Positions 17,251-63,851 of a stretch of 64,000 bases of DNA are shown in pieces. The first letter of the stretch is position 1. Each line of letters opens with the position of its first letter. The notes under the pieces are model-generated. The model did no database searches. It had not been told where the DNA came from and saw only the letters and a list, made by a program, of their open reading frames with translations. The position numbers were made by a program, and so were the translations under genes. Location: positions 499,419-563,418 of the forward strand of contig JBBDXB010000006.1 in the NCBI GenBank assembly GCA_040902515.1, in the 5' to 3' direction. The DNA comes from Patescibacteria group bacterium. GTDB taxonomy: Bacteria > Patescibacteriota > SICC01.

Positions 17251-17256
17251 GTGGCC

Positions 17257-18015: not shown

Positions 18016-18049
18016 AAAATCCGCCGGACATAAGCCCGCCGGATTTTTA

Positions 18050-42467: not shown

Positions 42468-42541
42468 AGGGGTGTAGCTCAGTCCGGCAGAGCACGGGTC
42501 TCCAAAACCCGGTGTCGGGGGTTCGAATCCCTCCACCCCTG
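42468..42541 (+). tRNA. tRNA-Trp (anticodon CCA)
   Basis: Acceptor aggggtg/cacccct, anticodon loop ctCCAaa, encoded CCA follows. Confidence 0.85.
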
Positions 42542-44131
42542 CCAAGAGGTACGAACGGCTTCCAAAGCCTCGTTTCGTTCCTCGGTAGAGATATTTTTCG
42601 CGGTTCTAACCTTGTGATATTCGGCTTCAAGCGCCGGGTACTGTTTTTTGATCGGTTCAAACCATTCGTAGCTTGATAGACGGAATTTTCCGTCCTCAAT
42701 CAACGGGTTCGAACCTAAAGTCATCACGATCTCTTTTTTCTCGTCCGGCGTGCCTTTCTCGAAGCGAACCCGGGCATAGGTGGCGTAGTCGAAGACTTTC
42801 TCCGTAAGCTCGATCCACTTGTCGGCGCGGCTCTCAGTGTCCCGGATTTTCTCTCGAAGGCTCCGTAGCTCGGCCTGAAGTCGCTTCCGATGCGCCGTGA
42901 ACTCTTCGTCATCAATCTGCTGTCGCATGCGCATCCTCGTTAGTTCATCTAGCTCACCCTGAGTGTCCTCAGCCGTCCTGTTCAGGGATGCGTGAGTTTT
43001 CTGTCGATCCGCAATCTCGCGGTCGTTACGGCGGTTCAAACCCTCGATTGCCCACTGCCGAAATTCCGGGGCAATCGTGATACTGCTGAGTTCCTTGTCG
43101 ATTTGCTTCTCAAGCTCAGTGTCCCGCAGGAAAGTACGCTGAGTGCAATCCACGTCTTTCTTCTTGCGGGTGCAATGGTAATAGGTGTACAGGCCAACCT
43201 TTCCGGTTTTCTTTATGATTTTTCGCTTTGTCTCAGCCGTGTAAAGACAACCGCATTCGGCGCAACGGATCAGACCTGTGAACGCGAAAAGATACTTCTG
43301 TGGGCGCGGGCGACCGTCCCGGCCGAGCAGAAGCTGAACCTTATCGTATTCTTCCTTGGTGACCATCGGCTTATGCTTTCCCTCATACCACTGACCGCTC
43401 CCTTTGGGGTACTCGAACTCGCCGTAGTAGAGGGGGTTGGTGAAAATTTTGTAAATCGCGCTCTTGGAGAGCGTCCTGCCGCCAAGCCGCTTCATCTGCC
43501 GTGTGCGAAGCCCCCATTCGTCCGTTGCGACTTTCAGGATGCGTGGTGGCGTATACGCGCCGGTAAGCATCAATTCCCACATCTTTCTGACTAGGGCGTA
43601 CCGCTCCGCGTCGGGCGCTATCGGATCTTCTTCCTCGCCGCCGGTTTTATAGCCGAGCGGCGGTACATGGGGATACCAGCCGCGCTCCGCTTTTCCGCGA
43701 ATGCCACGTATAACGTTCTTGCTAAGGTCGAGAACATATTGGTTAGACATGCCGCTCTCGATATTGAAGAGCAGGACATTGTCATCGGTAAGGTACTCGC
43801 GCTCGTAGGTCAGAATGCTTCGCAGTACTCCCTGTTGAAGTTTCCATTGCAGGTTTGCGCTGTCGATTGGGTTTCGGGAAAGACGGTTAATTTGCCAACA
43901 TAAGATGCCGTCGGCTTCTCCGGCTTCAATCCGTTCAAGCATCTCAGCGAATGCCGGTCGGTTGTTCGGCTTCTTCGCCGATTTCGACTCGGTGAAAACC
44001 TCTTTGACTTTCAACCTTCGCTCAGAGGCAATCTCTTTCAGGCGATTTAATTGATCCTCAATCGACTGCACTTGTCGATCTTCGCTTTCAGAAGACTTGC
44101 GGGCGTAAAGAAAGTAAGTGTTCTGGCTCAT
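42479..44131 (-). CDS. large serine recombinase (integrase of the island); the 3' end reads antisense through tRNA-Trp
   Basis: Resolvase domain YARKSSESEDRQ..S..Q, recombinase domain and a CxxC...C zinc ribbon. Confidence 0.9.
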   Translation of the reverse strand: MSQNTYFLYARKSSESEDRQVQSIEDQLNRLKEIASERRLKVKEVFTESKSAKKPNNRPAFAEMLERIEAGEADGILCWQINRLSRNPIDSANLQWKLQQGVLRSILTYEREYLTDDNVLLFNIESGMSNQYVLDLSKNVIRGIRGKAERGWYPHVPPLGYKTGGEEEDPIAPDAERYALVRKMWELMLTGAYTPPRILKVATDEWGLRTRQMKRLGGRTLSKSAIYKIFTNPLYYGEFEYPKGSGQWYEGKHKPMVTKEEYDKVQLLLGRDGRPRPQKYLFAFTGLIRCAECGCLYTAETKRKIIKKTGKVGLYTYYHCTRKKKDVDCTQRTFLRDTELEKQIDKELSSITIAPEFRQWAIEGLNRRNDREIADRQKTHASLNRTAEDTQGELDELTRMRMRQQIDDEEFTAHRKRLQAELRSLREKIRDTESRADKWIELTEKVFDYATYARVRFEKGTPDEKKEIVMTLGSNPLIEDGKFRLSSYEWFEPIKKQYPALEAEYHKVRTAKNISTEERNEALEAVRTSWQGWRDSNPRHRVLETRALPD

Positions 44132-44268
44132 GAGAGGCTCCTCAAGGGGCGAGTCCTGGCTGTTCCAGTCCGCTGCTCATACGAGTAGTTTTCTGGCAGA
44201 ACCCGCCCCTTGAGGGCAGGAAACAGAAAACTCGTATGAAGCGGGTGGGACATGGAACAGCATTCTTA

Positions 44269-44460
44269 TTATACGCCCTCCCGCTTGGCGTCGCGCTCTC
44301 GAATTTTTCCAACGTCGCCCTCCGTGATCGGCTGATATACGAGACTCATTGTTCGCAGAACTAACTCACCCTTTTCCCGGGCTTCCTCATGGCTCAGGAC
44401 AACCCCGAATTTCTTCTTATAGATTTTTTGAAATCCAGCGATTTCGGATTGAGTGAGCAT
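44269..44460 (-). CDS. small conserved protein (63 aa), paralog of 60166..60423
   Basis: Shares the F.KIYKK.FG...S.EEARE.G..LLR.M..VY.P.T...V...RERD.KR pattern with the 85-aa ORF at 60166. Confidence 0.5.
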   Translation of the reverse strand: MLTQSEIAGFQKIYKKKFGVVLSHEEAREKGELVLRTMSLVYQPITEGDVGKIRERDAKREGV

Positions 44461-44475
44461 TGGGTAAAACGGCTG

Positions 44476-45483
44476 TTACTTAGGGAGGTCAGTTTTACCC
44501 TTTTGGTCAGCACTCTTTCGCGGTAACGAGTAGAAGAGTTTTTTCTTTTCACCGCGCCGTTCGATGATTTCACCACTCTTCACAAGGTCTTTTACTACTT
44601 CGCGCAGTAGCTTGTCTGACGCACTCACATCCGAAGCCCGAACTTTTTCGAACAGCTCTTGTTGGTAGAGGGGATCATCTTGTTCACCGATTAGATCGGG
44701 AATACACTTCTTTGCCTCATTACGGCTGGAAATTGCTTCATCAACCTCTCCGGCAAACTCGAGAGATACGAGCTGGCCGTCAGTGACAATATCGAGACGA
44801 AACGGCTTTGCTTCTGGCTGATGCCGCAGTTTTGTTTGGTGGATAATCAGGTAATCGTCTTTCTTGCGGATTGCTAGGTGGCAATCCACGGCCGCGAGGA
44901 TGTCTGACGAACCACGCATATCTTGGGCAGGGTTAGAACGTCCCGGCCCTTGTTTACGGTTGTGGTGAGTGAAAAGCACGGCGATTCCCGCGGCCTTAAA
45001 CTGACTGAGCAACTTTGCAACGCCCGCCATCTTTCCAGCGTCGTTTTCATCTTCACCGTGGATCCTGACAAGGGAGTCGAAGATCACCAGTCCGATTTCA
45101 AATTCCTTGCATAGTTCCAATAGCTCTTCGACTTTTTTTACCGACAGAGAGAAATTTTGGTATGAACGAAAATAGATTGGCAATTCCGAGTCTGCAGACA
45201 AAGCGGTAAGTCGTTTTTTCAGCAGAGGAGGACCGCTTTCCTCATCCACAATAAGAACTCCGGTCTGATCAGTCGCAAACTTACTGCACAACTGCGACCC
45301 GGAAGCGACGCTCAAAGCCGCCTGTAGTACTAGCCAAGTCTTATACGAAGCTGGCGCCCCAGAAAGTGCAGTGATGCCCGTGGCAGGGATTAGACTTTCG
45401 ACCACCCACTCCACGGGCGGAAACTCCATCCCCATCAAATGGGAGAGCGTGAGAACCGAGAAATTGTCATTTTTGGTTTCCAT
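44476..45483 (-). CDS. RecA-like AAA_25 / RepA-type ATPase (replication/helicase-loader-like)
   Basis: Walker A ALSGAPASYKTW, Walker B GVLIVDE; size and context typical of island primase-associated ATPases. Confidence 0.7.
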   Translation of the reverse strand: METKNDNFSVLTLSHLMGMEFPPVEWVVESLIPATGITALSGAPASYKTWLVLQAALSVASGSQLCSKFATDQTGVLIVDEESGPPLLKKRLTALSADSELPIYFRSYQNFSLSVKKVEELLELCKEFEIGLVIFDSLVRIHGEDENDAGKMAGVAKLLSQFKAAGIAVLFTHHNRKQGPGRSNPAQDMRGSSDILAAVDCHLAIRKKDDYLIIHQTKLRHQPEAKPFRLDIVTDGQLVSLEFAGEVDEAISSRNEAKKCIPDLIGEQDDPLYQQELFEKVRASDVSASDKLLREVVKDLVKSGEIIERRGEKKKLFYSLPRKSADQKGKTDLPK

Positions 45484-45950
45484 TACTGCTCAATTCTTGC
45501 CATGTACACAGCAACGCTGAACGGCATCGCATGGATATTAGTGATGTATGCGATGGTATCGCCACCGATAGCGCATTCACCGCACCAGAAAGTGTTACTG
45601 TCTGGAAACACCTGAAACTCCTTCGTGTGATGAGCGAAAGGGCAGGACGGAACATTTTTTTGAGAACCTTTATCTTTCTCCATATAGATGACATCCCGAA
45701 GAGGAAGGTCTTGGGCGTACTGGATATCACATCTCCATGTATGACCAGTGATGTCGTTGACGAAAGGATTGAATAACAGTTTCAGTCGTGAACGGAGACT
45801 CAGGTATTCGTTCCAGTGGCCGTCGCATGTACACCACCGACTACCCCTAACTTCACAAAGTAGATTTCTTATCACCCAAAACTTCGTTCTTACACATTCG
45901 GTCAGGACGAAAAGAAGAGAGTATTTGATTTGTTTCTTATCTGCCCGCAT
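45483..45950 (-). CDS. CHC2-type (DnaG-like) zinc-finger protein; the conserved part is the C-terminal 65 aa (alternative start at 45680)
   Basis: CPFAHHTKEFQVFPDSNTFWCGECAIGGDTIAYI matches the CHC2 primase zinc-finger pattern CPFH..K.PSF.V.....F.CFGCG.GGD.I. Confidence 0.6.
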   Translation of the reverse strand: MRADKKQIKYSLLFVLTECVRTKFWVIRNLLCEVRGSRWCTCDGHWNEYLSLRSRLKLLFNPFVNDITGHTWRCDIQYAQDLPLRDVIYMEKDKGSQKNVPSCPFAHHTKEFQVFPDSNTFWCGECAIGGDTIAYITNIHAMPFSVAVYMARIEQ

Positions 45951-46179
45951 GGAGTCGATCCTTGATTAGCTTGGTGTGTACTAAAACGACGCGAGGGTTA
46001 AGTGACAGTTGGTCTTTGTAGAAGGCTTCGGCATCCTGCTCGGCCGAGCCTGAATTAGAAAATTGGAACACAGAACGACTGTGGTTCGTGCGATCCACAG
46101 TTTCGAGATGATGGCCGAGAGCGCTGAGCGCAGTGGCCAAATGGAAATCAGAAGTATCGAATGTATCTGCTTGCTTCAT
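45937..46179 (-). CDS. small DUF5659-like protein (80 aa)
   Basis: FDTSDFHLATALSALGHHL...RSVFQF.NS...AEAFYKDQLSLNPRVVLVHTKLIKDRL follows the recalled DUF5659 pattern. Confidence 0.45.
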   Translation of the reverse strand: MKQADTFDTSDFHLATALSALGHHLETVDRTNHSRSVFQFSNSGSAEQDAEAFYKDQLSLNPRVVLVHTKLIKDRLHAGR

Positions 46180-46264
46180 AATCGGTTCATAAAAAGCCGG
46201 AGCTTTACTCCGACAATATGAGGCAACAGATTAACCGCCTAGTTGGGTGGGAAAAGTGAAATAT

Positions 46265-47344
46265 CTATTCAGACCATATGTAGCGGTTTTCCTTCATATA
46301 GATTGGAAAATCTTCACCCGTTTTTACACCTAGCCTCGTACGCAAATTCCTGTACGTGTCGTAAACGTCTTTTCGTTCCTTGAATGGCCTTGTGAGCGAC
46401 CCGTACCTGTCTTGCTGTTCAATAATTTCGGCCGCGCGCCACGGGTCGTTCTTCCCTTCGGCTAAGAACTTGACCAACGTAAGAGGGCGAGAATTTGAAG
46501 ACAGCCTAGCCTCTTTATTCTTGAACCTAAGAGTCTGCTTGTCCGGGTCGAAGAGGAGGCGGGGCTGAAAGTCAGCATCTTCATCGAGCGCGCTAACTAG
46601 TTCTTCATGAACCTTCCCCGCAGGGTATGCGTATTTGGATTTGTGGAATGTCTCATTCTTTTTCTTGAACTGGAACGGGTGGAAGTCGAGAAGTTCGTTC
46701 AACTCAGAGCAACGATCGTTATACTCTTCCAACTCCCGGTGATCTGAATACGGCAGCTCACCAAATGCATGGCGCAGTCGGTACAGCTCAAGTAGCTTCT
46801 GCCATGCTCCCCAAATTGAGTCGCGTTCCTTTAGCTTCGACTCAGCAACCACATCAGTAACGTACCGGATATATGCAGGCGATTTGATGGATACATCGAT
46901 ATCATCTGCACTGTGTTCCTTGATCGTCGCGTACTTCGCCCAAATTTCTTCACGACCATCCGCAAATAGAGCCTTCAAGATTTTCCGCAAGATGGACTCG
47001 TACTGTCCGGCGCGCCATATTTCGCTGTGACTAACATCATGGACTGCCTTTGCGCTTTTGAAGTCGGCTGAATGCTCGGGTAAATCCTTACAGTCCTTTT
47101 GGAGAAGCACTATGAGCTTCCAAAGTTCGTACGAGGCTTCCTTGGACAGCCGCTCCGCTTCTCGGTCGAGTCGCTTCTTCTCGGTGTTGAAACGCTTCTC
47201 AGATATTTTTCGGAGAGTATCCGATCCACGGACGAAGCGGACGTAATCCGCAAGACCTTCGAAATAGCCGGGATCGTCGAGACCCTCGAAAGTGCGATAC
47301 TGGCGCACCAGCTGGCGCTTCAGAGTCGCAGGTGTTTCCGGCAT
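46265..47344 (-). CDS. hypothetical protein (359 aa)
   Basis: Long ORF inside the island. Confidence 0.6.
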   Translation of the reverse strand: MPETPATLKRQLVRQYRTFEGLDDPGYFEGLADYVRFVRGSDTLRKISEKRFNTEKKRLDREAERLSKEASYELWKLIVLLQKDCKDLPEHSADFKSAKAVHDVSHSEIWRAGQYESILRKILKALFADGREEIWAKYATIKEHSADDIDVSIKSPAYIRYVTDVVAESKLKERDSIWGAWQKLLELYRLRHAFGELPYSDHRELEEYNDRCSELNELLDFHPFQFKKKNETFHKSKYAYPAGKVHEELVSALDEDADFQPRLLFDPDKQTLRFKNKEARLSSNSRPLTLVKFLAEGKNDPWRAAEIIEQQDRYGSLTRPFKERKDVYDTYRNLRTRLGVKTGEDFPIYMKENRYIWSE

Positions 47345-47440
47345 TGGATATTCATATTCATCACCGGCAGTTTACTACTGCACTAAGGCGAATGTTCAAG
47401 TCAACGGACAACCCGCATGGACGAACTAGAGGTGTGTTCG

Positions 47441-47686
47441 CTACAGATCCTTGAGTAGCTGGTCTGCCGGAACCTTCAGTCCCTTGGCTAGGCGGTAGAC
47501 AGTCCGAACCGTAGGGCGCATACGTCCCTGCTCGATAAACCCTATGTGCTTCCAATCGACTCCGCTCTTTGCGGCCAGTTGCTCTTGTGTGAGGGACTTC
47601 TCGTTTCGGAGTTTGGCTAGTCTCTTACCCACGGAGTCGAGAAAGCGTTCCTCTTGTCCTGAACTCATAGACCCAGCGTCCGCCAT
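47441..47686 (-). CDS. XRE-family helix-turn-helix transcriptional regulator
   Basis: RLAKLRNEKSLTQEQLAAKSGVDWKHIGFIEQG HTH_3 pattern. Confidence 0.8.
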   Translation of the reverse strand: MADAGSMSSGQEERFLDSVGKRLAKLRNEKSLTQEQLAAKSGVDWKHIGFIEQGRMRPTVRTVYRLAKGLKVPADQLLKDL

Positions 47687-47724
47687 GCCGAGCTACGGCA
47701 ACACTAAGATATATTAGTGTGTGT

Positions 47725-49545
47725 ATGGCTACTGCTACCGCAAAGCGTGAAATCCCAGCCGAAGTAAGGGCGGAAGTACTTGAGCGTGATGAAAACAAGT
47801 GTAGGGAATGCGGATCCAAGCAGGGACTCAACCTGCACCACGTCTTGCCGGAACAGTTTGGTGGCAAAGAGACTCCCGACAATCTGATAACCGTCTGCAA
47901 GCTCCACCACAAAGCGAAACACGTGGAATTCCACATGTTCTATGGAGATAGCCGTAGTGTGGTTGCGCATATGAGGCGCTACGCCGACCAGGTACGTCAG
48001 CTGAGCGGTAACTTCTTCGGGTTGATGGGCGAGGTACGGCTTAAGCCCGTTCTCTACCTGCTGACCGGACAACGGACATTCCGTCCAAGTCAGGAAGAGG
48101 TAATCCGGGACGTGCTGGCGGGGCGTGACGTGTTATTTGTGACCCCGACAGGATCAGGGAAGTCACTTTGCTTTCAATTGCCGGGTCTTTTACTAGACGG
48201 ACAGACCATGGTTATTTCACCCCTGAAGTCTCTGATGAAGGATCAGGTTGAAGGATTGCTCAAACGGAAAGTACCAGCTACCTATATCAACAGTGACCTC
48301 GGTACGCATGAGAAAAACCAGCGGATAAAGTTTGCCTTAGAAGGGTTGTTCCGGTTCCTATATGTAACCCCCGAGCGGTTTTTCCAGCCGCGCCTCAACC
48401 TGAAGAACAGACTTATTCGAAAGTACAAACTGTTGGCGGTAGACGAAGCTCACTGCATCGATCTCTGGGGGCGCAACTTCCGGCCTTCTTACGCGAAGCT
48501 AGGAGAGCTGAAAAAGGCTCTGGGAAGTCCTCCGACCTTGGCGCTCACGGCAACGGCATCGAAACGAGTCCAAAAAGAAATACTTAAATCCCTTGATATG
48601 CCGAACGCGAAGCGTTACGTCACGGGTTTTCACCGCCCGGAGATTGAACTTTATAACCTGCAAATACCGGTCGGCTTCAAAGATGAAAAGACAGGGGACT
48701 TACTCAGAAGCGAAGAAAAAGTCGATGCCGCGAAAGCGGATCTCATCGAGCGGATACTCAAAGCTCCGAAGTACTACAAGCCAAACCCTCGGCGCCGGTG
48801 GCGAATGATAAAACGAGATATTGCTCCTAAGAAATTCGCGTTGGTTAAGGATGCGCTTTCAGAGCATCGAGAGCAGAGGGTTTCTTTCTACCAAACTTTC
48901 TTTCGGAAGTATAAGGGAGAGCTGCGCGCGGCGGTAAAGCTCATCCGGGACAAAAAACTCAAGCGTGGCGTGAGCCGTTTGACCAAGGCTCGCCAGAAAG
49001 TGCTTTGGCAGACGTATCAGATCGTCAATGACGACAAAGTTCTGATATTCGTGCCGACCGTTACCAAGGGAAAGGAATTAAGAAAAGAGCTAGAGAAGCG
49101 GGGCATTGCCATTGATTTCTACCATGGGAAACTGCCGGTTCACGAAAAAACCCAAGTACAAAACCGCTATTCCGGACTGTTTGGCAAGCAAAGCCGGGCG
49201 CTGATTAGCACCTCCGCATTCGGCATGGGAATAGACATTTCAAACATCAGGCGAGTGGTTCACTACTCGGTTACGGCAAGCCTAGAGGATTACTATCAGC
49301 AAATCGGGCGAGCGGGCAGGGATCGCAAGCGGTCTAAAGCGTTTCTGCTCTATGCCCCGGGCGACGAGGAATTAATCCGCTTCATGAACGAAGTTTCCAA
49401 AGAAGACAAGGAGGAACCGCTAACCGCACAGCAACGAGAACGCCTCGTTCAAATCGAAGAAAAAGAGTTGTCGGCAATGCTCGACTATCTCCAGGCGCCC
49501 CATCAATGGCGTCACATCCTCGATTACTTCGGAGAAACCGTTTAG
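47725..49545 (+). CDS. HNH endonuclease fused to a RecQ-family DNA helicase (no RQC/HRDC domains; about 130-aa basic insertion between the RecA lobes)
   Basis: N-terminal CRECGS...LHHVLP...DNLITVC..HH; RecQ motifs TFRPSQEEVIRDVLAGRDVLFVTPTGSGKSLCFQLP, VISPLKSLMKDQVEGL, LLAVDEAHCIDLWGRNFRPSY, AFGMGIDISNIRRVVHY, QQIGRAGRD. Confidence 0.85.
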   Translation: MATATAKREIPAEVRAEVLERDENKCRECGSKQGLNLHHVLPEQFGGKETPDNLITVCKLHHKAKHVEFHMFYGDSRSVVAHMRRYADQVRQLSGNFFGLMGEVRLKPVLYLLTGQRTFRPSQEEVIRDVLAGRDVLFVTPTGSGKSLCFQLPGLLLDGQTMVISPLKSLMKDQVEGLLKRKVPATYINSDLGTHEKNQRIKFALEGLFRFLYVTPERFFQPRLNLKNRLIRKYKLLAVDEAHCIDLWGRNFRPSYAKLGELKKALGSPPTLALTATASKRVQKEILKSLDMPNAKRYVTGFHRPEIELYNLQIPVGFKDEKTGDLLRSEEKVDAAKADLIERILKAPKYYKPNPRRRWRMIKRDIAPKKFALVKDALSEHREQRVSFYQTFFRKYKGELRAAVKLIRDKKLKRGVSRLTKARQKVLWQTYQIVNDDKVLIFVPTVTKGKELRKELEKRGIAIDFYHGKLPVHEKTQVQNRYSGLFGKQSRALISTSAFGMGIDISNIRRVVHYSVTASLEDYYQQIGRAGRDRKRSKAFLLYAPGDEELIRFMNEVSKEDKEEPLTAQQRERLVQIEEKELSAMLDYLQAPHQWRHILDYFGETV

Positions 49546-49602
49546 CGACCTTTTAACTATCGTTGCGCTAAGATTGCTGTATATGCAGATGAAAGCTGAT
49601 GA

Positions 49603-52767: not shown

Positions 52768-52768
52768 T

Positions 52769-55700: not shown

Positions 55701-56329
55701 CGACCGTACCTATCGCAACCAGTGCGGATAAGCCAAAGTTCGAAATAACTTCTGTCGAGTGCTTCTTAGTAGACTCAACTCGATTGTCGGAGGAAGAACG
55801 TGAAAAGTTAAAAAAAGCTGAGATTAATTTGTATACTTCGTCTTCAACGTCTAAGGATTATCCAACCATGTCGTTGCCTCGTGGCCTGAGTGATAAACAC
55901 TACTGCACCGTCCATGAAATAAAGACTCATACGGCAAGCGCTGTTGATCTTTATTCGGAGAAAGATTTTGGGAAAGATCTTCGACTACTGAACATCTGGG
56001 CAGTATTAAATTCGACATTAGGTTGGCTCATAAGAGAGACATCTGGAAGAAAGAATTTGGGCGGGGGAATGCTCAAGGCAGAGGCAGTAGACTTGAAAGC
56101 TTTTCCTCTGTATCTCGATCTGAAAAAAGACAAACAGATCAGCAAGATCTTTACGAAGACAAAAGGGCGGCTGGTGAAATCCGTGTTCGAAGAAATGAAA
56201 ACTGAAGAGCATAAAGCCATAGATAGGATTGTGTTCGACCACCTTTCGATACTCCCAAAAAATAGAAAAGGTTTGATTGATCTTACGCTTGAAACAGTTA
56301 GGGATAGGTATGCCAAATCCAAAACCTAG
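52769..56329 (+). CDS. gamma-class N6-adenine DNA methyltransferase of the MmeI/Eco57I/PglX/DrmMI lineage (about 1186 aa) with a long N-terminal domain and C-terminal putative target-recognition region
   Basis: Motif X YYTPREIV, motif I VCDPAIGSGAYP (nt about 54230), FFIWHLYFLEVF hinge, motif IV VLGNPPY (55040-55051), LNGGLFEP motif; the ATG at 52769 is 2 nt after the upstream stop (the track TTG at 52751 overlaps). Confidence 0.85.
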   Translation: MQNTEATKLVNEVLGSPFDRGGFGSLAKNILKKLDDRSENSTFSYSGNLIPDAFKGHVSKYERLGKYQDPSSKHHTVDVLIVHLAKTDALDRARTMQRNFIARYLNGSRGGQQKDAALVAFVAPNRNDWRFSLVRMDYKDFGTKKELSPARRYSFLVGQDEQTHTARTQLVDILTSDELPDIEVLTSAFNVEKVGQEFFERYKELFLQLKEALDGMIESDKSIARDFSSKEVRSEDFAKKLLGQVVFLYFLQKKGWLGVPKEKTWGEGPKDFLRRLYLGKYGEYSNFFNDVLEPLFYEALSTERSKHYYDRLKSKIPFLNGGLFEPIDDYDWVDTDVLIPDKLFSNSDNADLGTGILDVFDRYNFTVKEDEPLDKEVAVDPEMLGKVFENLLDVRDRRSKGSYYTPREIVHYMCQASLLNYLDSRIDGKISRSDLESFLRTSDMVVEHDSLIQKRGKETSAYQYKLPENVRAYADKIDSLLSEVRVCDPAIGSGAYPVGMMHEIVRARQVLAIFSSKPFSAYQLKLDVIQNSLFGVNIDSGAVEIAKLRLWLSLVVDENSTDEIDPLPNLDYRIMQGNSLVEDFGEIELFDAEVLKDESSREGKKLAVRNLKKQVETLEKEYLSLHKSSQLTDARKKAINKEIRRTRRRLKLLAGSKTDDRLSLFSDKGEVDYKQVLRELFEKFFDASHKKEKDQLRSNIEEIQWHLIESSLVKEGKADKIDEIEDLRSKKQRPFFIWHLYFLEVFEEKGGFDIVLGNPPYLESRHPNFSESMKDDVQRAAHKRWPQDADKITRGSDLLVYFFELGLSLVNKSGQVILLTQNSWLDTEYGKKFQEFLLKHSKVESIIDSDFKHFDSRLGPNINTIITTLRSGGNEKSNTYLAKFHENYSDMPLTLSSKLGKLATIKNLTSDSGLLQKYKWGFILSSNQILLEAVDALSKSGQFLSELDGISVGQGLNVSKSSIYEKSLLKKFPFVKKATVPIATSADKPKFEITSVECFLVDSTRLSEEEREKLKKAEINLYTSSSTSKDYPTMSLPRGLSDKHYCTVHEIKTHTASAVDLYSEKDFGKDLRLLNIWAVLNSTLGWLIRETSGRKNLGGGMLKAEAVDLKAFPLYLDLKKDKQISKIFTKTKGRLVKSVFEEMKTEEHKAIDRIVFDHLSILPKNRKGLIDLTLETVRDRYAKSKT

Positions 56330-57101
56330 TCCGAAGAAAGGATACACACGCACGCGCAATGTGTTCGACCCTGAGTCAGCTGATACGTATAAACTGTCTA
56401 GATCAAAGCTTGAGAACTTCATACGATGTCCTCGTTGTTTCTATCTTGATCGCCGACTCGGAGTAGGACAGCCGCAAGGCCCGCCGTTTCTACTGAACTC
56501 AGCGGTGGACGAGCTGCTGAAAAAGGAATTCGACCGACATCGGAAAGCTCAGACCAAGCACAAGATTTGCGAGCAATTCGGGGTGGACGCGATCCCACTC
56601 AATCACGAGAAGCTCGATATTTGGAGACACAACTTCGCCGGGCTGGAAACACTACATAAGCCAACGAACTTATTGATTTTCGGGGCGGTGGACGACATCT
56701 GGGTCAACCCGGCCGGGGAGTGGATTGTGGTCGACTATAAGGCCACCTCAAAGCGTGCTGAGATCACACTGGATACCAAGTGGGGCAAAGGCTACAAGAG
56801 ACAGTTAGAGATTTACCAGTGGATATTGAAGCAAAACGGCGAGCCCGTCTCGGAGACCGCATACATCCTGTACTGCAATAACATTCTTGATCGGGAAGAC
56901 TTCGATAATCGCCTCGATTTTGAGGTAAGCATGTTCAAGCACGAAGGCGATACCTCGTGGGTCGAGCCGAAGATTATCGAGGCTCATAAGGCTCTAGTTT
57001 CTGGTCAAATCCCCTCGCCAGCCGAAGACTGCGAGTATTGTGCTTACCGAGAAGCCGCGAGATTAAAGGAAGTCGATGTCACCAAAGAAATCAATCAGTG
57101 A
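56310..57101 (+). CDS. Cas4/RecB-like PD-(D/E)xK nuclease with N- and C-terminal CxxC pairs (putative Fe-S)
   Basis: IRCPRCFY...GAVDDIWVNPAGEWIVVDYKATSK (D, ExK)...RQLEIYQWIL...YILYC...EDCEYCAY; the ATG overlaps the MTase stop. Confidence 0.75.
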   Translation: MPNPKPSPKKGYTRTRNVFDPESADTYKLSRSKLENFIRCPRCFYLDRRLGVGQPQGPPFLLNSAVDELLKKEFDRHRKAQTKHKICEQFGVDAIPLNHEKLDIWRHNFAGLETLHKPTNLLIFGAVDDIWVNPAGEWIVVDYKATSKRAEITLDTKWGKGYKRQLEIYQWILKQNGEPVSETAYILYCNNILDREDFDNRLDFEVSMFKHEGDTSWVEPKIIEAHKALVSGQIPSPAEDCEYCAYREAARLKEVDVTKEINQ

Positions 57102-58008
57102 CCTCTCGGGCGAACTGAGGGAAGTAATCAATAGCAGTATTTCCCTGCGCAATCAGGTGTACCAACAGAAAGCAAAGGGAGCGTGGGATCGGCTTTGGGC
57201 TTCAATGGATGCGCTTGACGATGCACAACTCGCAATCGAGAAGTTCCAAAAAGCGTCCTCAATATCATATCTGGAGTTATACGGACTCCTGCAAGCTTTC
57301 ATTGTTCAACAGGATAGCGTTAATCACATACGGCAGACGACCCTTAATGCACCTCTGATTAAATGGGATAAAGCAGAGCCGAAACTTAATCAGATACGGT
57401 ATTTGAGAAACGAAACAGTTGGTCACCCGACTGACATTCGAACAGGCAAGACGATAGTCTACTGCAATATAAACCGCAGGTCGGTATCTAAAACGAGCTT
57501 CGAGTACATGATTTGGAGTCAGGCCGGAGCGCAACACAAAACCGTCGATGTGACTGATGTAATCAAAACGCAAGATGTCGAAGTCGCGCGCCTAATTAGG
57601 AAAATCATCGCTGACATTAAAGCGCATGAAGTTAGGTTTAAGAAGCAGTTTTCGGGAAAAAAATTGAAAACCGACTACTCGCAGATTAGTCACTACGAGT
57701 TCGAAAAACTTTATCTGTACCAAAACAACCCTGAAATTGCACAGATTATGTTCGGTTTAATAAAAAAGAAGTATGCAGAACTCCGGACTGAACTGGCAAA
57801 ACGCTACGGCGACTTTAGCACCACTATTAACGTCGGAGGTCTCAAAATTGTAATCGACGAACTGGACGAACTTGTTAAACGGGTTGGGACAAAATTGAAC
57901 GAAGGTGTCCCTGACGCCTTTGATTTCAATGTTTATGTCGAAAACCTAGATAGTAAATGGAAAGAACTGGGCGAAATGATCGATGAAACAGACGAGAAGT
58001 TTAGCTGA
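57076..58008 (+). CDS. hypothetical helical protein (310 aa) with a possible HEPN-like Rx5H motif (YLRNETVGH)
   Basis: ORF overlaps the previous stop by 26 nt; the motif match is weak. Confidence 0.55.
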   Translation: MSPKKSISDLSGELREVINSSISLRNQVYQQKAKGAWDRLWASMDALDDAQLAIEKFQKASSISYLELYGLLQAFIVQQDSVNHIRQTTLNAPLIKWDKAEPKLNQIRYLRNETVGHPTDIRTGKTIVYCNINRRSVSKTSFEYMIWSQAGAQHKTVDVTDVIKTQDVEVARLIRKIIADIKAHEVRFKKQFSGKKLKTDYSQISHYEFEKLYLYQNNPEIAQIMFGLIKKKYAELRTELAKRYGDFSTTINVGGLKIVIDELDELVKRVGTKLNEGVPDAFDFNVYVENLDSKWKELGEMIDETDEKFS

Positions 58009-58072
58009 TTATGGATTCATGCAAGGCGCGGAGTCATGGCTGCGGACTTAACGAAGGGGTAACCTTATAGCA

Positions 58073-59908
58073 ATGCGGGAAATTCATGGTGACGCAAAAA
58101 CCGTTCGGGACCTACTCAAAGGGGTTAAGTACTCCATTGACTACTACCAGCGTGAGTACAAGTGGGGCGGGAAACAGCTTCGCGAGCTTATCGATGACCT
58201 GAGTGGTAAGTTTTTGGAAGTCCACAAACCGGGCAACGACCGCAAGAAAGTTTCCGAATACCCCCACTACTTTCTCGGTTCGATCATCATCAGCAAAAAA
58301 GAGAGTGCGAATTATGTCGTGGACGGTCAGCAGCGTCTAACGACGTTGACCCTTCTCCTGATTTACCTAAGAAACCTCCAACGCGAGCGTGACGATAAGG
58401 TTTCGATTGACGAATTGGTCGCTTCCGAAACCTACGGCGAACAGTCATTCAACATCGAGGTAGACGAACGCATCCCGGTAATGGACGCGTTGTTTAGCAA
58501 TAAATCATTTGATGCGACTGACCGATCAGAGTCAGTACAGAACATCCTTAAAAGGTACGAGGAACTCGATGACGCTTTTCCCGAAGAACTGCGCGAAGAC
58601 GCGCTTCCGTATTTCATAGACTGGCTTCAGCAGAATGTTCATTTTGTGGAAATTACCGCGTATTCCGACGACGACGCCTACACGATTTTCGAAACGATGA
58701 ACGATCGCGGCCTTTCCCTGTCCCCGACGGACATGTTGAAAGGTTATTTGCTCGCGAATGTAGACAGATCCAAGCGTAATACCGCAAATGATTTTTGGCG
58801 CAAACGCATGAGCGAGTTAACCGATGTGGGTAAGGAAGCTGAGGCAGATTTCTTCAAGGCATGGTTGAGGAGCCAATACGCAACCAAGATCCGCGAGCGA
58901 AAACGGGGTGCTACTCCCGAGGACTTTGACCGGATTGGTACCGAGTTCCACCGGTGGTTGAGAGATGCCAGCAAGAAAATCGGCTTGGAACAAGACGACG
59001 ATTTCTATCAATTGATTGACCGGAACCTCAACTTCTACAGCCGACAGTATCTCGAATTGATGCGGGCGTCCCGGGAGCCAGTTGAGGGACTAGAACATGT
59101 ACTTTATAACGCCCACCATGGGTTCACCCTTCAATACATGTTGTTGTTAGCCCCGCTCACTCCAGACGACACTGACGAAGTAGCTCGGCAAAAACAGCGA
59201 CTAGTTGGGCAGTTCGTGGACATACTGATTACTCGAAGAATTTGGAATTTCCGATCCATCTCATATTCAACAATGCAGTACGCCATGTTCCTTGTTATGC
59301 GGAGCATACGAGGTCTCGAGCCCGACCAACTTGGGGAGACGTTAAAAAAGGCGCTTGGTGAGCAGGACGAGACTTTCTCAACCCAAGAAGACCTTTACCT
59401 ACATCAACAGAACCGGAGGGCTCTGCATCGGGTTCTGGCGCGCCTTGCTGACAGCGTAGAGGTTGGCTCGGGGCAACCGACGCAGTATATGAATTTTGTC
59501 AGTGACACCGGAAAAGACAGGTTCGAAGTAGAGCATATTTGGGCCGACAAATACGATCGGCATAAGGAAGCGTTTGCACACCCCAAAGACTTTGCAGATT
59601 ATCGTAATCGCATCGGCGGTCTCTTGCTCTTGCCAAAGAGTTTCAATGCTAGCTACGGTGATTTGGCATACGAGAAGAAACTCCCTCACTATCTGACTCA
59701 AAACCTACTTGCCCGGTCGCTGCACCCGCAGTGCTATGAGCGCAATCCTGGCTTTATAAAATTCGTGAAAGAAACCGGGTTGCCGTTCCGGGCTCACGAA
59801 AAATTTACGAAGGAAGATCTCGACGCGCGAGGAGCCCTCTATCGACAGCTTGCAGAATACGTATGGAACCCCAATAAGCTGATAGGTGATGACGTTAGCG
59901 GATCTTAA
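58073..59908 (+). CDS. GmrSD-family type IV restriction enzyme (DUF262 ParB-like NTPase plus DUF1524 His-Me nuclease)
   Basis: DYYQREYKW and VVDGQQRLTTL (DGQQR) in the N-terminal half; FEVEHIWAD...N..N in the C-terminal half. Confidence 0.8.
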   Translation: MREIHGDAKTVRDLLKGVKYSIDYYQREYKWGGKQLRELIDDLSGKFLEVHKPGNDRKKVSEYPHYFLGSIIISKKESANYVVDGQQRLTTLTLLLIYLRNLQRERDDKVSIDELVASETYGEQSFNIEVDERIPVMDALFSNKSFDATDRSESVQNILKRYEELDDAFPEELREDALPYFIDWLQQNVHFVEITAYSDDDAYTIFETMNDRGLSLSPTDMLKGYLLANVDRSKRNTANDFWRKRMSELTDVGKEAEADFFKAWLRSQYATKIRERKRGATPEDFDRIGTEFHRWLRDASKKIGLEQDDDFYQLIDRNLNFYSRQYLELMRASREPVEGLEHVLYNAHHGFTLQYMLLLAPLTPDDTDEVARQKQRLVGQFVDILITRRIWNFRSISYSTMQYAMFLVMRSIRGLEPDQLGETLKKALGEQDETFSTQEDLYLHQQNRRALHRVLARLADSVEVGSGQPTQYMNFVSDTGKDRFEVEHIWADKYDRHKEAFAHPKDFADYRNRIGGLLLLPKSFNASYGDLAYEKKLPHYLTQNLLARSLHPQCYERNPGFIKFVKETGLPFRAHEKFTKEDLDARGALYRQLAEYVWNPNKLIGDDVSGS

Positions 59909-60182
59909 GAGACGCCTTCGTCAAACGAAGTTCCGGTTCGCAAAAACCTATAGCGATACGTACCCCCACGAGTACCTGGTCAAAGAATTGGATGCTGCCC
60001 TCTTTGATGAAATGGCGAAGTTGATTGACGGGAAGGGCTACAAATCCGACTTCCACGGTCAGGAACATACGTACCTAGAGCTTGATGGTTACAAGTACTG
60101 GCACTATGAAACTATCCTTAACAGGGAGCCCCTGAAGGGGTACAAGGATGTAGAGAAGGAGTTAAATGCATCTGACCGATGA
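59889..60182 (+). CDS. hypothetical protein (97 aa)
   Basis: ORF overlapping the GmrSD stop. Confidence 0.45.
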   Translation: MTLADLKRRLRQTKFRFAKTYSDTYPHEYLVKELDAALFDEMAKLIDGKGYKSDFHGQEHTYLELDGYKYWHYETILNREPLKGYKDVEKELNASDR

Positions 60183-60423
60183 AGACATAGACGGGTTCCG
60201 CCGTATCTATAAGAAGCGGTTTGGCGAAGACATAAGCCGGGAAGAAGCACGGGAGGAGGGATCAAGCCTGCTTCGTCTGATGAAAGTCGTCTACAAACCA
60301 GTCACGCAGGAGCAGGTGGATAGCCTCCGTGAGCGCGATATGAAGCGAGTGGACGAAGCCTACGACTTTATCTTCGCAAAGGCTTTGAAAGAGAAGAAGA
60401 GTGAGTCAAATGCTGACGATTGA
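60166..60423 (+). CDS. small conserved protein (85 aa), paralog of 44269..44460
   Basis: See 44269..44460. Confidence 0.5.
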   Translation: MHLTDEDIDGFRRIYKKRFGEDISREEAREEGSSLLRLMKVVYKPVTQEQVDSLRERDMKRVDEAYDFIFAKALKEKKSESNADD

Positions 60424-60550
60424 AGAATGTCGGAAACACCTCCGGGACGACCGGGATCTCACCGACGAACAGGTTCTCGAGCTTCGAGATGCTCTCTATC
60501 ACCTGATTGAAACTGTTTGGGACGAGAAGCTTGGAGACAAGTCTGACTGA
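60410..60550 (+). CDS. 46-aa ORF (MLTIEECRKHLRDDRDLTDEQVLELRDALYHLIETVWDEKLGDKSD) overlapping the previous stop
   Basis: Hand-translated; below the track cutoff; a fourth consecutive overlapping start in the operon. Confidence 0.25.
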   Translation: MLTIEECRKHLRDDRDLTDEQVLELRDALYHLIETVWDEKLGDKSD

Positions 60551-61180
60551 CCTGTTAGGTAAAAGTGACCCCTCTATAGGAGAGCCGTTTTACCGCACCC
60601 TATCCTAAAATTTTTTCACAGATTTCTAAGACGGCCAGGTGACAGGGGGAGGAGAGAGAAAGGGGGGATAGGGGTAGTTACGTACAAATGTGACGTTATC
60701 TACTAGAAATTCCTGTTCCTAGCACGCGCAGTGCTAACCGATCATGAATTTCGGTAACTACGCCCGAGGGGAAAGGCGGGCAGGGGGAGACGCGAGATAG
60801 AGAATGCCATAGCCCTTTCGCTACTTCAGGCGTGAATTCTTCCCGTTTTGTTAGCCTCAGTCACTAAAAAGAGTGAATTAGGGTCGATCACCCACGCATG
60901 GCGGTGTTACCTTACAGTGCGTAGTGGTTCACCGTTGGCGTTACTGGCTTCGAGCGGGGCTAGGTGCGGGCTTCCCGGGAAGGGGGAGGGGCGAGAGACA
61001 TGGTAGATGGGACACTTTACGCACGAAAGTAACGCTCTTTCGGGAAGCTGCCGCCAAGAAAAAGGCTACTTTGCACCCCATGCCGCCGCACCCACCTAGG
61101 CTCTTACCCTTATCACTCACGCATAGCATCTGCCTTCAACCACACCTGCGGCCTGACTCACCGCGCTGCAGTAAACTGGA

Positions 61181-62011
61181 GTGACTTTGGACAACCTCGA
61201 AGAAAACACGCTCTACATCTACACTGATGGCTCTTCGCCTAGCTCGCCCCGGGTCGGAGGGATTGGGATTGTCTTTGCGTGGATCCGGCCGGACGGGACG
61301 GTCGGAGAGTACAAAGACGAACAAGAGGCCTATCGAAGCGGGACAAACAACCAAATGGAGCTGGAAGCTGGCCTGCACGGATTGCGGGAGTTCGACAGGG
61401 CGAGGTTTCCGATAGACGTGCGGGCTGAGATCTCTTCCCATTCGAGGATTGTCATCAGGTCGGACTCCAACTATGTGGTCGAGAACTTCTACCGCGCCTT
61501 CTCCGAGTGGTCTGGGTCTTGGCTGAAAAGATCCGGTGAGCCGGTAGCGAACCCTGAACAGTGGAAGGCGCTGGTGAGGATGGTAAGGCGACTCCAGCGC
61601 AAGAGTGTCAGCGTGCGGGTAGAAAAAGTGAAAGGCCATAGTAGAAGCGTACTCAACCGGAAAGCTCACAAAATGGCCGGGAGGTCAGCCAGGAGGAAAC
61701 CTACTAAGCAAGTCAGTCACATTCGAGTACGGAGGAAGCAGGGTAAAAAATCGGTCGACTCGAAATTGGTTCCGATGCTCGGCCAGAGGATAACCATCTA
61801 CATCGTTACCGACACGTACCTGAAGCCCTCCAAGAGATATCGTTACAAATACCAGGTGAGATCGAGGGGAAAGTTCTTCCACCAGACTGCCCTCGCTCAC
61901 TCAAAGGTGATGATGAGTGCCGGACATACTTATCGGGTTCGCCTTGGCGAAGATCAGAGCAATCCTACGATTGTGAAATGCTTCGGTGAGGTGCCGAAGA
62001 AAGGGAAGTAG
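61181..62011 (+). CDS. RNase HI-domain protein with about 130-aa basic C-terminal extension (GTG 61181 or TTG 61187 start)
   Basis: LYIYTDGSS, TNNQMELEAGL, IRSDSNYVV, VKGHSRSVLNRKAHKMA align to RNase HI D10/E48/D70/H124/N130; the position equivalent to D134 is His. Confidence 0.7.
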   Translation: MTLDNLEENTLYIYTDGSSPSSPRVGGIGIVFAWIRPDGTVGEYKDEQEAYRSGTNNQMELEAGLHGLREFDRARFPIDVRAEISSHSRIVIRSDSNYVVENFYRAFSEWSGSWLKRSGEPVANPEQWKALVRMVRRLQRKSVSVRVEKVKGHSRSVLNRKAHKMAGRSARRKPTKQVSHIRVRRKQGKKSVDSKLVPMLGQRITIYIVTDTYLKPSKRYRYKYQVRSRGKFFHQTALAHSKVMMSAGHTYRVRLGEDQSNPTIVKCFGEVPKKGK

Positions 62012-62446
62012 CTGTACTCTTAGCGTAGAATTGCTTTAGCGCAGTTCGAACGTCCTCTACGCACCCCTGCCAACATCACTGGCAATCCGAGTAGCGGTGC
62101 TCACAGTATGATGTTCGCGATATAATGTCGCCGAAAGGAAAAAATGAAAAGAAAGTTACAATGGAGCAGGGCATATCAAAGGCTCAGGGGCTACAAAAAG
62201 ATCCCCAGTCTTCAAGTTCCCGATGTGTTAGTTGTGGACCCTCTGTACGTGCTCGACCCCATTACTCCAAAGGTTCTCTGCTTCCTCAGGAAGGAGTGGA
62301 AGTGGCTCGCAGGATTTTCACTTGCGCTCTTTAGTCTTGCGTTGAACTAAACAAACCGCCGAGTAGCCTGTCTATCCTCAATCCCAACTCCCCGGCGCGT
62401 CCCAAAGATTATTGAACTATTGCTGAAGCTTGGTGAGACCGGCTAC

Positions 62447-62734
62447 TTACTGATTTACGACAGTGAGAGCAAATATAAGCCCAATTAGGAAAAGGCCAAT
62501 CAAGAGTCCAGAAAGAATAGTTACCGTAAGGTTTAAACCTTTTGAGATTCTGTTTCCTTTAGCTCGCGATATAGCTGCCGTTCCTAATAAAACACTAACG
62601 ACCAGATATAGAAAAGATATTTCTGGTCGGCTATCGCCCAGAGAGCCTACCGCAGTTAGAAGCGCTAATGCTGCCGCGATCAAAGGAAGTGCAGCAGATG
62701 GCTTTCGGGTCGGTGAAAGTGAAGATTCTTTCAT
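62447..62734 (-). CDS. small membrane protein (95 aa from the internal Met MKESSLSP; 2 TM)
   Basis: Hydrophobic ORF; the longer track ORF overlaps a plus-strand ORF. Confidence 0.4.
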   Translation of the reverse strand: MKESSLSPTRKPSAALPLIAAALALLTAVGSLGDSRPEISFLYLVVSVLLGTAAISRAKGNRISKGLNLTVTILSGLLIGLFLIGLIFALTVVNQ

Positions 62735-62809
62735 TGTGCGTTTAGAGTAGCATGGATTCTGGACCCGACTGCCCTGCCGAATCACAAGCTCAAAGGTTTC
62801 AGTTAGGAT

Positions 62810-63094
62810 ATGCATATGCGCGACATTAAACGCGGCGGAGCTAATCCAGGTCACGACGGCGACCTTCCAGAAGGCAGTTCGGGATTCGATGGGCGTGATG
62901 ACCACGTTGACTACTTGGATTGGACCGACAACGAGCCGGGGCAGCCAAGGACCACGCTATTTGTCGGTGGACGCTCACATGTCGATCCTGACCGCCGGTA
63001 TCTCACTGTCAGCGACATAGATGGCGATCAAAGCAAGCTCGATCAGGGTGCCCGTGACGTGTTAGAGGCTTTCGGATTACTTAGAGACTCTTAA
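62810..63094 (+). CDS. hypothetical acidic protein (94 aa)
   Basis: ORF only. Confidence 0.3.
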   Translation: MHMRDIKRGGANPGHDGDLPEGSSGFDGRDDHVDYLDWTDNEPGQPRTTLFVGGRSHVDPDRRYLTVSDIDGDQSKLDQGARDVLEAFGLLRDS

Positions 63095-63194
63095 GAGTCA
63101 GTCCCTGGTTGTGCAGTAACATTCCTGATCGAACTTGCCCGTGACCCAAGGGAACGAGCTTGAAGGTCTGGGCAAGTAGTGGAATCCTAAGCCC

Positions 63195-63824
63195 ATGGAC
63201 TTACTTGGAATATTCCTGACGGTTGCACTGGTTCATCTACTGGCTGTCATGAGCCCCGGTCCGGATTTTGTAATGCTTACTGGCAACACCGTTCGTTACT
63301 CACGGAGAACGGGGGTGCTTACAGCTGCAGGTCTCGGTCTTGGTATTCTTGTTCATGTTACCTACTCTCTAGTTGGCATAGGGCTGCTGGTTTCACAGTC
63401 AATTCTGCTTTTCACGATTATCAAATATGTTGGCGCCGCTTACCTGGTCTACATCGGATACAAGGCACTTAGGTCTGAAAGCAGTAAACGCGCTGTTGCA
63501 CGAAAGTCAGCAAGAAAAGACATATCTCCGCGCAGAGCCATTGGCATGGGTTTTATCACCAACGTCACCAACCCCAAGGCGACCCTCTTTTTCCTCAGTC
63601 TATTCTCGGTGGTGATTTCTCCAGGAACCCCTTTTTGGCTCAAGGCGGTTATGAGCATCGAGATGTCTCTTGTGACATTTGCATGGTTCGCCTTGGTTGC
63701 TGTGGTTATATCGCACCGTTTAGTAGCAAAGCGCCTTGATTCGGTTCAGCACATAGTCGAGCGAGCAATCGGCGGTGTGCTGATATTGTTAGGCCTACGC
63801 ATAGCCACGACGGCCTCCAGGTAA
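63195..63824 (+). CDS. LysE/RhtB-family amino-acid exporter
   Basis: N-terminal FLTVALVHLLAVMSPGPDF motif typical of RhtB/LysE; 6 TM. Confidence 0.85.
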   Translation: MDLLGIFLTVALVHLLAVMSPGPDFVMLTGNTVRYSRRTGVLTAAGLGLGILVHVTYSLVGIGLLVSQSILLFTIIKYVGAAYLVYIGYKALRSESSKRAVARKSARKDISPRRAIGMGFITNVTNPKATLFFLSLFSVVISPGTPFWLKAVMSIEMSLVTFAWFALVAVVISHRLVAKRLDSVQHIVERAIGGVLILLGLRIATTASR

Positions 63825-63851
63825 GTTGGCAGGTTCTGAGTGATTAAGCCG

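Follow-up and report, generated by a model that had tools for sequence, protein, structure and literature searches.

A defence-carrying element probably integrated by a large serine recombinase at the 3′ end of tRNA-Trp in a Saccharibacteria-like bacterium

We analysed a 64,000-nt window (contig JBBDXB010000006.1 of assembly GCA_040902515.1, forward strand 499,419-563,418; coordinates below are window positions unless a locus is named) in which the gene of a large serine recombinase (LSR), the integrase of a putative mobile element, runs antisense into a tRNA-Trp gene. The left host flank ends with rpmG (ribosomal protein L33, 53 aa, Pfam Ribosomal_L33, 42231-42392, + strand), which has the same upstream synteny in the related loci L003, L004, L005 and L131. 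Next comes tRNA-Trp(cca), here called copy 1, which ARAGORN placed at 42468-42544 (+) with an intact 7-bp acceptor stem and with the T-loop TTCGAAT at 42522-42528. The integrase gene (550 aa) occupies 42479-44131 on the − strand. GC content falls from 0.67 in the upstream host DNA to 0.489 over 42545-62063, and it is already about 0.57 from 41.1 kb onwards, in host genes common to the relatives.

The nearest genome was L005, a metagenome-assembled genome (MAG) of an uncultured Candidatus Saccharibacteria and the sole species-representative genome with a matching tRNA-Trp sequence (query, bases 1-48). Because this genome is syntenic with the window and 91% identical to it at the nucleotide level over the flanking host genes, the host is, on that evidence, Saccharibacteria-like (Patescibacteria) and not actinobacterial. 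In addition, contigs from the Logan assemblies of SRR27977660 and SRR27977661 were 100% identical to the window across 21.5 kb. One of them (21,620 bp) runs from 42511, within tRNA-Trp, to about 64130 and terminates in a second tRNA-Trp, and another carries this second copy on to base 48. The rpmG-tRNA-Trp-integrase junction was also found in two NCBI MAG contigs, both of which break off within the integrase gene.

The integrase has the domain set of an LSR. The catalytic domain (Resolvase, PF00239, 1e-20) spans residues 7-151 and has the catalytic serine expected of LSRs, and the Recombinase (PF07508, 1.3e-8) and Zn_ribbon_recom (PF13408, 2.3e-10) domains lie C-terminal to it; PHROGs returned an integrase (4e-72). 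R11, K12 and S13 of the motif YARKSS are invariant in an alignment of the clade (A1), and the window protein has every invariant column of that alignment, including these three residues and W530. The last 21 integrase codons, from W530 onward (...WQGWRDSNPRHRVLETRALPD), are antisense tRNA-Trp: W530 (TGG) is the complement of the tRNA CCA, residues 531-550 are encoded by antisense tRNA, and tRNA bases 12-14 are complementary to the stop codon TGA. From W530 the codons read TGG CAG GGG TGG AGG GAT TCG AAC CCC, and GATTCGAAC in this end is the complement of the T-loop.

By searching the island for the predicted P arm of the attachment (att) site, we found attR at 62045-62073 (+), where TTCGAAC and 12 further nt are followed by the core CCCCTGCCA(A). 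The pattern TTCGAAC-N12-CCCCTGCCA had a single match in the window (62045-62072), while 0.08 would be expected by chance at ≤2 mismatches. The block CACCCCTGCCAA at 62062-62073 exactly repeats 42534-42545, the attL copy, as a 12-bp direct repeat; it holds the last 9-11 nt of tRNA-Trp. Copy 1 would form the B arm of attL, and its acceptor 3′ strand and CCA lie within this crossover/identity block. Read in the integrase sense, TTCGAAC of attR lies at +20..+26 after TGG, 5 bp further out than the T-loop of the tRNA. Since attR lies at 62045-62073, the right limit of the element is put at 62072, and the LSR element delimited in this way spans ~19.5 kb (about 42536-62072). The symmetric placing of GTTCG and CGAAC in attP-type sites suggests a crossover centre at about 42536-42537, where the crossover dinucleotide would be expected. 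The signature used by Islander was found: the integrase gene lies between an intact tRNA gene (tDNA) and a displaced tDNA fragment at the opposite end, and this fragment is far shorter than usual. We regard the assignment of the element and its att sites with good confidence.

The attP core of the element is predicted as GTTCGTACCTCTTGGCAGGGGTGCGTAGAGGACGTTCGAAC, the attP junction as ...GAAGCCGTTCGTACCTCTTGGCAGGGGTGCGTAGAGGACGTTCGAACTGCGCTAAAG... and the attB junction as ...GGTTCGAATCCCTCCACCCCTGCCAACATCACTGGCAATCCGAG.... Joining the attR P arm to the integrase gene gives a predicted excised-form tail, WQGCVEDVRTAL.../WQGCVEDVRTALKQF..., which matches the attP-type tails WLRTVNNVRT.., WLRTLNEIRTFF.. 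and WLALLNDFRTF..; the likeness arises from a shared DNA motif, in that DVRT is encoded by GAC GTT CGA ACT. The integrated tail ...WQGWRDSNPRHRVLETRALPD is seen in the window, and the excised tail is reconstructed from attR.

An earlier note on this DNA had described an integrated mobile island beside rpmG-tRNA-Trp and an LSR gene whose last 21 codons run antisense into the tRNA, and both descriptions hold. Its suggestion to look at both ends of the island for short crossover repeats proved decisive. The proposal that part of the tRNA gene is element-derived through att-site reconstitution also appears broadly right, with a small extent: probably just the last ~8-10 bases (3′ acceptor strand, discriminator and CCA), within or beyond the 12-bp block. 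The abrupt GC drop after tRNA-Trp is real (0.67 to 0.49), although GC is already lowered in the host genes from 41.1 kb. The limits given on the right did not stand. The low-GC tract is composite, with the LSR element ending at 62072 and not at 63830 (~21 kb), and what was taken for a recovery of GC after 63830 is just a GC-rich gene fragment of ~270 bp (0.62), ~170 bp of it in the window.

The integrase belongs to a large clade, with at least 4898 homologues at E ≤ 1e-10, mostly in Patescibacteria MAGs. The closest found (~60% identity) were all uncharacterised metagenomic proteins, and a scan of viral contigs gave only distant relatives (25-38% identity). W530 was invariant in all 30 sequences of alignment A1, and in 120 of the 120 best homologues the anchor position held a TGG codon complementary to the tRNA CCA. 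The homologue C-termini end in a conserved ...SVRARW followed in most by x4-DSN(P/L/Q), the T-loop-antisense type, which was present in about 82 of 93 hits with tails of ≥7 aa; tails beyond W530 range from 2 to ~60 aa and track the tRNA sequence. An antisense tRNA-Gln covered the integrase end in all three homologue loci that we fetched, and an antisense tRNA did so in 54 of 80 metagenomic loci, with 11 specificities (Asn, Gln, Ser, His, Trp, Lys, Glu, Asp, Arg, Met and Pro). Six further loci among the 80 had tRNA-like sequence at the integrase end, with a group I intron confirmed in four; in the other two, L038 and L046, the assignment is by sequence similarity only. Because it recurs throughout the clade, the overlap of integrase gene and tRNA gene is not due to chance.

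The intron splits the targeted tRNA gene (Rfam RF00028, 60-104 bits) in L020 (2090-2302), L028 (5541-5797), L034 (11636-11839) and L057 (3132-3367), which is why ARAGORN missed these tRNAs, and intron-containing tRNA genes seem fairly common in these Patescibacteria. In several other loci the contig end cuts within tRNA-like sequence, and many contigs of the family stop no more than ~100 bp past the integrase, as expected if the assembly graph branches at the tRNA. No second tRNA copy or fragment was found within 10 kb upstream of the integrase in ~60 family loci, whose elements exceed the retrievable flank.

Not all family loci run into a tRNA. Eleven keep the integrase end, TGG and ~6-8 nt, and then depart from any tRNA (attP-type loci). 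TTCGAAC occurs at +15..+21 after TGG in 66 of 68 tRNA-type loci, and a TTCGAAC-like heptamer at +20..+26 in 8-10 of the 11 attP-type loci, which brings the distal motif of attB ~5 bp closer in than that of attP, as in LSRs. For LI integrase it is an established rule, proposed for other LSRs as well (PMC3783163), that the zinc-ribbon-domain (ZD) motif of attB is shifted 5 bp inward from its place in attP. The opposite arm has GTTCG at −12..−8 before TGG, and the midpoint of the two motifs falls ~6 nt after TGG, in the acceptor-stem 3′ strand. From these offsets, the T-loop is somewhat favoured as the motif that the zinc ribbon would recognise. L041 and L054 have restriction-modification cargo directly after the integrase and then the element's own backbone, a gene order that fits either circular permutation of the element or two elements joined in tandem. 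None of the 11 attP-type contigs had terminal overlaps in a test of circularity. L066 (from ~3172) and L070 share an identical integrase end plus TGGCTCGCCC and then diverge; L070 continues into an attP-type arm, and L066 runs into GC-rich, coding-looking sequence that lacks tRNA features, possibly a secondary or off-target site of integration.

The conserved integrase end also appears to supply the tRNA with a terminator. Its reverse complement reads CCA-(~9 nt)-GAACAGAGGC-NNNN-GCCTCTGTT-TTTTGCTTTATTT, a hairpin followed by a T-run directly 3′ of the tRNA. In the window, the P′ arm and terminator-like hairpin lie at 42545-42580 (+), antisense within the integrase coding sequence; the hairpin GGCTT-CCA-AAGCC (42557-42569), followed by TCGTTTCGTT, was flagged by a terminator scan, and its stem GGCTT/AAGCC differs from the common family stem. 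A hairpin with a T-run folds in most of 74 distinct family sequences. Furthermore, 89.6% of the cells were paired, both-side changes occurred in 8 of 10 pairs, and none of 500 shuffles matched the observed covariation; slid controls were only 31-58% paired. In L005 the native tRNA-Trp has no encoded CCA, and the element always provides one.

Taken together, these results make it likely that the LSR integrated the 42536-62072 element into the 3′ end of tRNA-Trp, with attP within the 3′ end of the integrase gene itself. In the mechanism that we propose, the last ~12 codons ahead of the invariant Trp codon would serve as the P′ arm, the crossover would take place ~6 bases beyond TGG (the complement of CCA) in the acceptor-stem 3′ strand, and the P arm would be a degenerate mimic of the tRNA acceptor and T-arm, in which TTCGAAC sits 5 bp more distally than the T-loop does in the real tRNA. 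Recombination with attB would join host tRNA bases 1 to ~68 to an element-supplied acceptor end, CCA and intrinsic terminator, so that the tRNA would stay intact and gain a terminator. The integrase reading frame would then run into antisense tRNA, its tail changing from the predicted excised form ...WQGCVEDVRTAL... to the integrated form ...WQGWRDSNPRHRVLETRALPD, and the displaced P arm with the 12-bp repeat would become attR at 62045-62073. Such a switch of the tail with integration state might feed back on directionality or stability. Insertion of the element would have hit a tRNA-Trp hotspot where other foreign DNA (62074-64094) and a duplicated tRNA-Trp were already present.

Several observations weigh against this reading. 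The B′ side of the reconstructed attB (CCAACATCACTGG...) has no clear mirrored motif, no excised circle, empty attB or junction-spanning read was seen for the window element, and no recombination directionality factor (RDF) was identified in it. In other family members attR could not be viewed, with distal ends >10 kb from the integrase, and the attP-type loci could be junctions of tandem arrays rather than free circles. The covariation alignment consists of antisense coding sequence of related elements, and part of its signal may reflect shared ancestry. Finally, the second full-length tRNA-Trp ~2 kb beyond attR is outside the scope of the LSR mechanism and needs a separate event.

The gene content of the element is that of an integrative, probably self-replicating and defence-carrying unit. 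Upstream of the integrase, a backbone on the − strand (44269-47686), annotated with Pfam and PHROGs, comprises a 63-aa open reading frame (ORF), an AAA_25 RepA/DnaB-like ATPase (44476-45483), a 155-aa CHC2 primase zinc-finger protein (45483-45950), a DUF5659 protein (45937-46179), a 359-aa protein with no assigned function (46265-47344) and an XRE-type helix-turn-helix regulator (47441-47686). The defence cargo follows on the + strand (47719-59908; Pfam, PADLOC). It encodes an HNH plus RecQ-like helicase, DpdF/PsyrT-like (PADLOC DpdF, 1e-102), a PLD(HKD)-SNF2 helicase (C3a139 HKD+Snf2, 1e-50), a 1192-aa type IIG restriction-modification enzyme (REase_MTase_IIG, 5.5e-201), a Cas4-like PD-(D/E)XK nuclease (Cas4, 1e-9), a 310-aa protein with no assigned function and a GmrSD/HEC-06-like type IV nuclease (HEC-06, 7e-41). 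The distal end (59886-62011, +) carries small ORFs and an RNase H-like protein at 61181-62011 (Pfam RNase_H, 4.6e-18; PHROG RNase H, 1e-26). No virion structural or packaging gene (capsid, terminase, portal or tail) was found among the scanned island ORFs of ≥75 aa (19 ORFs with Pfam, 10 with PHROGs), whose hits were confined to integrase, replication, regulator, RNase H and defence functions. Likewise, the scanned island ORFs of that size contained no relaxase, coupling protein, type IV secretion or FtsK-like translocase, and no tyrosine integrase (Phage_integrase domain) was found among the scanned ORFs, the sole recombinase of the element being of the serine family.

The DUF5659 and primase/helicase module upstream of the integrase is kept in L006, L008, L009, L054, L063 and L076. 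The backbone of relatives consists of DUF5659, a 65-aa ORF, a ~730-aa Toprim primase, two small proteins and the integrase, and their distal end carries a HTH_17 (small MerR-like) gene with type III restriction-modification cargo. A LOOT RNA (Rfam RF03000, 89 bits) lies within one related element (L034, 6020-6142).

This content bears on whether the element could still move. It may instead be a decayed remnant that can no longer excise and has merely inherited an intact-looking architecture: all four assemblies and samples held integrated copies only, no RDF was recognised, and the replication module looks reduced, with the 155-aa CHC2 ORF and AAA_25 ATPase in place of the ~730-aa Toprim primase of relatives. 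However, the integrase ORF is full length with every clade-invariant residue, attL and attR are perfect, and the cargo ORFs are long and uninterrupted; we consider decay unlikely, and the element may be active at present.

Beyond attR, 62074-64094 appears to be an older, foreign-looking and integrase-less islet outside the LSR element. Its ORFs (62074-63824, GC 0.49-0.50) encode a 152-aa membrane protein (−), a 94-aa protein and a LysE-family exporter (63195-63824, +; Pfam LysE, 1.2e-34). They are followed by the GC-rich truncated gene fragment already mentioned (63825-64000, −, running on to ~64094), which by eye looks like a putative phosphoribosyltransferase-like C-terminus. The Logan contigs (L001, 10901-10936; L002, 1802-1849) place a full-length tRNA-Trp copy 2 from ~64095, ~95 bp past the window end; a scan of genome contigs gave no match to its junction. 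Copy 2 has T (not C) at base 17 and is apparently without an encoded CCA, like the native gene of L005. Over bases 1-48 of copy 2 the two copies differ only at base 17, and the contig break on the copy-1 side (L130) means that their identity ends at the discriminator or the first C of CCA. Copy 1 has the native upstream flank, yet it has C17 and CCA. We rejected the two full tRNA-Trp copies as attL and attR of the LSR: a proper P-type attR lies at 62045-62073, and copy 2 is not an LSR recombination product because its spacing is of the attB type. In the simplest reading, an earlier insertion carried a whole tRNA-Trp, of which the 2-kb islet would be a remnant, and integration of the LSR element into the proximal copy would have come later; copy 2 may alternatively stem from recombination between the tRNA copies or from a transfer of the composite.

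The two copies also invite another view of the mobile unit. It could be the entire 21.6-kb tract reaching from one full tRNA-Trp copy to the other (42468 to ~64170), which would have entered by homologous recombination, or by a lost tyrosine integrase, between an element-borne and the host tRNA-Trp, the LSR being a passenger or having acted earlier in the donor genome. The near-identity of the two full-length copies (base 17 alone differing in bases 1-48), the native flank of copy 1, the T17 and apparent lack of CCA that copy 2 shares with the L005 tRNA, and Islander-type tRNA fragments at this hotspot in relatives would all agree with such an entry. It leaves unexplained, however, the precise P-type attR (62045-62073), the 12-bp repeat with the correct 5-bp offset and the clade-wide architecture, and no tyrosine integrase was seen in the tract. 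We judge it improbable as a substitute for LSR integration, with which it is compatible as an extra earlier or later layer.

That the overlap is incidental, the protein truly ending near W530 with the ORF reading on to the first stop and the att site lying elsewhere, as in serine integrases that target protein-coding genes, agrees with tails of 2 to ~60 aa that track the tRNA, so that selection on them as protein is unlikely. Against it, the frame is fixed and the Trp codon complements CCA in every case, antisense tRNAs with 11 different specificities lie at the exact same position, the 12-bp repeat recurs at attR and the alternative non-tRNA continuations start 6-8 nt after TGG, which makes an incidental overlap scarcely credible.

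Relatives show other DNA at the same place. In L131, rpmG and tRNA-Trp are followed by ~5 kb of variable low-GC genes and then by murB-secE-nusG-rplK-rplA, without the window element, and secE-nusG lie ~7 kb beyond rpmG. The earlier note had started from an actinobacterial gene order and placed the island directly in the secE position; the Saccharibacteria MAG as nearest genome contradicts the first, and the ~7 kb of variable DNA that part rpmG-tRNA-Trp from murB-secE-nusG-rplK in L131 the second. In L005 (2700-3388, −) and L131 (9284-10580), a kynurenine formamidase-like cyclase gene is flanked by the full tRNA-Trp on one side and by a 43-45-nt fragment from the 3′ part of this tRNA on the other. 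This mini-islet is separate and has the signature of the classic tyrosine-integrase style. After the tRNA fragment, L005 has AGAAGAGGTA, similar to the P′ arm of the window element and perhaps a decayed attL. L005 was rejected as a clean empty site, as it carries the cyclase islet and the decayed tRNA fragment followed by the P′-like remnant. On these comparisons, the tRNA-Trp locus is a repeatedly hit insertion hotspot upstream of secE.

Other parts of the window were also surveyed. Within 41393-42194, a 242-aa ORF without Pfam match has its end exactly at the start of the opposite-strand tRNA-Thr(tgt) gene (42120-42194). This arrangement and its lower GC (0.57) are kept in all relatives (L003-L005 and L131), so we place the region in host DNA, outside the island. 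A second low-GC islet (15500-18050, GC 0.43-0.46 against 0.64-0.68 around it) adjoins the 3′ side of the tmRNA gene (18050-18474, −; Rfam RF00023, 163 bits). No Pfam match was obtained for the ORFs in this islet (16252-17250 and 17257-18015), and no integrase was seen in it. A methyltransferase and an EamA transporter gene at 12.5-14.3 kb are of intermediate GC.

Phage-type LSRs (A118/LI, Bxb1, phiC31 and SPbeta) resemble the window integrase in their set of Resolvase, Recombinase and zinc-ribbon domains, and they too have short att sites adjoining the integrase gene. As in the window clade, the distal motif of LI integrase lies 5 bp nearer the centre in attB than in attP (PMC3783163). Unlike them, the window clade targets the 3′ ends of tRNA genes and not a protein-coding gene or intergenic site, attP of the window element would lie within the integrase ORF, and the block shared by its attP and attB, of 9-12 bp, would restore the target gene.

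Myxophage Mx8 targets a tRNA gene (tRNA-Asp), and its Int is a tyrosine recombinase, unlike the LSR of the window. In Mx8 IntP and in the streptococcal serine integrases of integrative and conjugative elements (ICEs) that target rumA, the att site lies in the 3′ end of the integrase gene, and integration alters the length and C-terminus of the protein (PMC4701971). Both are like the window element in having the att site within the integrase 3′ end; the rumA ICE enzymes are of the serine family too, but their target is a protein-coding gene that is disrupted or altered, whereas the window element would restore the tRNA.

tRNA genes are classic landing sites of tyrosine integrases. The tRNA islands of these enzymes (Islander) and the SSV1-type archaeal integrases are like the window element in using a tDNA target, supplying the displaced 3′ part and leaving the tRNA functional, and their defence and cargo islands gather at tRNA hotspots, as here. 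They differ in the catalyst, which is a serine recombinase in the window, and in the displaced tRNA fragment, of ~9-11 nt in the window against tens of bases. phiRSM uses a resolvase-like small serine recombinase at the 3′ end of tRNA-Ser. Tycheposons of Prochlorococcus are tRNA-associated elements with replication modules and cargo, and 27 of 937 tycheposons and cryptic elements encode an LSR (10.1101/2020.12.28.424599). They share with the window element the tRNA association, integrative nature, replication module and cargo; tycheposons and phiRSM were compared with it by description only, and the hosts differ.

In the literature searched, of which coverage was incomplete, we found no description of the clade or of a design with T-loop targeting and attP within the integrase gene, so this large clade is apparently undescribed. 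The curated view is that serine integrases do not specify tRNA genes (PMC4383910); contrary to it, a very large LSR clade appears to target them systematically. The wider proposal is that a thousands-strong LSR clade, centred on Patescibacteria and the candidate phyla radiation (CPR), uses the conserved tRNA T-loop/T-arm as the zinc-ribbon motif of attB, that retargeting among at least 11 tRNA species needs only a change of the ~9-nt acceptor/CCA core, and that the same gene end is attP, tRNA 3′ replacement and terminator; judged on sequence comparisons, we hold its chances to be evenly balanced. A stretch of ~60 bp would then be the integrase C-terminus, the P′ arm, the replacement of CCA and acceptor and the tRNA terminator at once. 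If true, the proposal would do away with the view that tDNAs are specified by tyrosine integrases alone, and the clade would provide a natural, modular scaffold on which serine integrases could be retargeted. These enzymes are the preferred tools for insertion of large DNA and are hard to retarget, and a family that appears to hold the T-loop constant while it swaps a short core may serve as a data set for specificity rules. Little is known of the mobile elements of Patescibacteria. Such integration would explain the frequent assembly breaks at tRNA genes in these genomes and may provide a first mechanistic handle on the movement of their defence islands.

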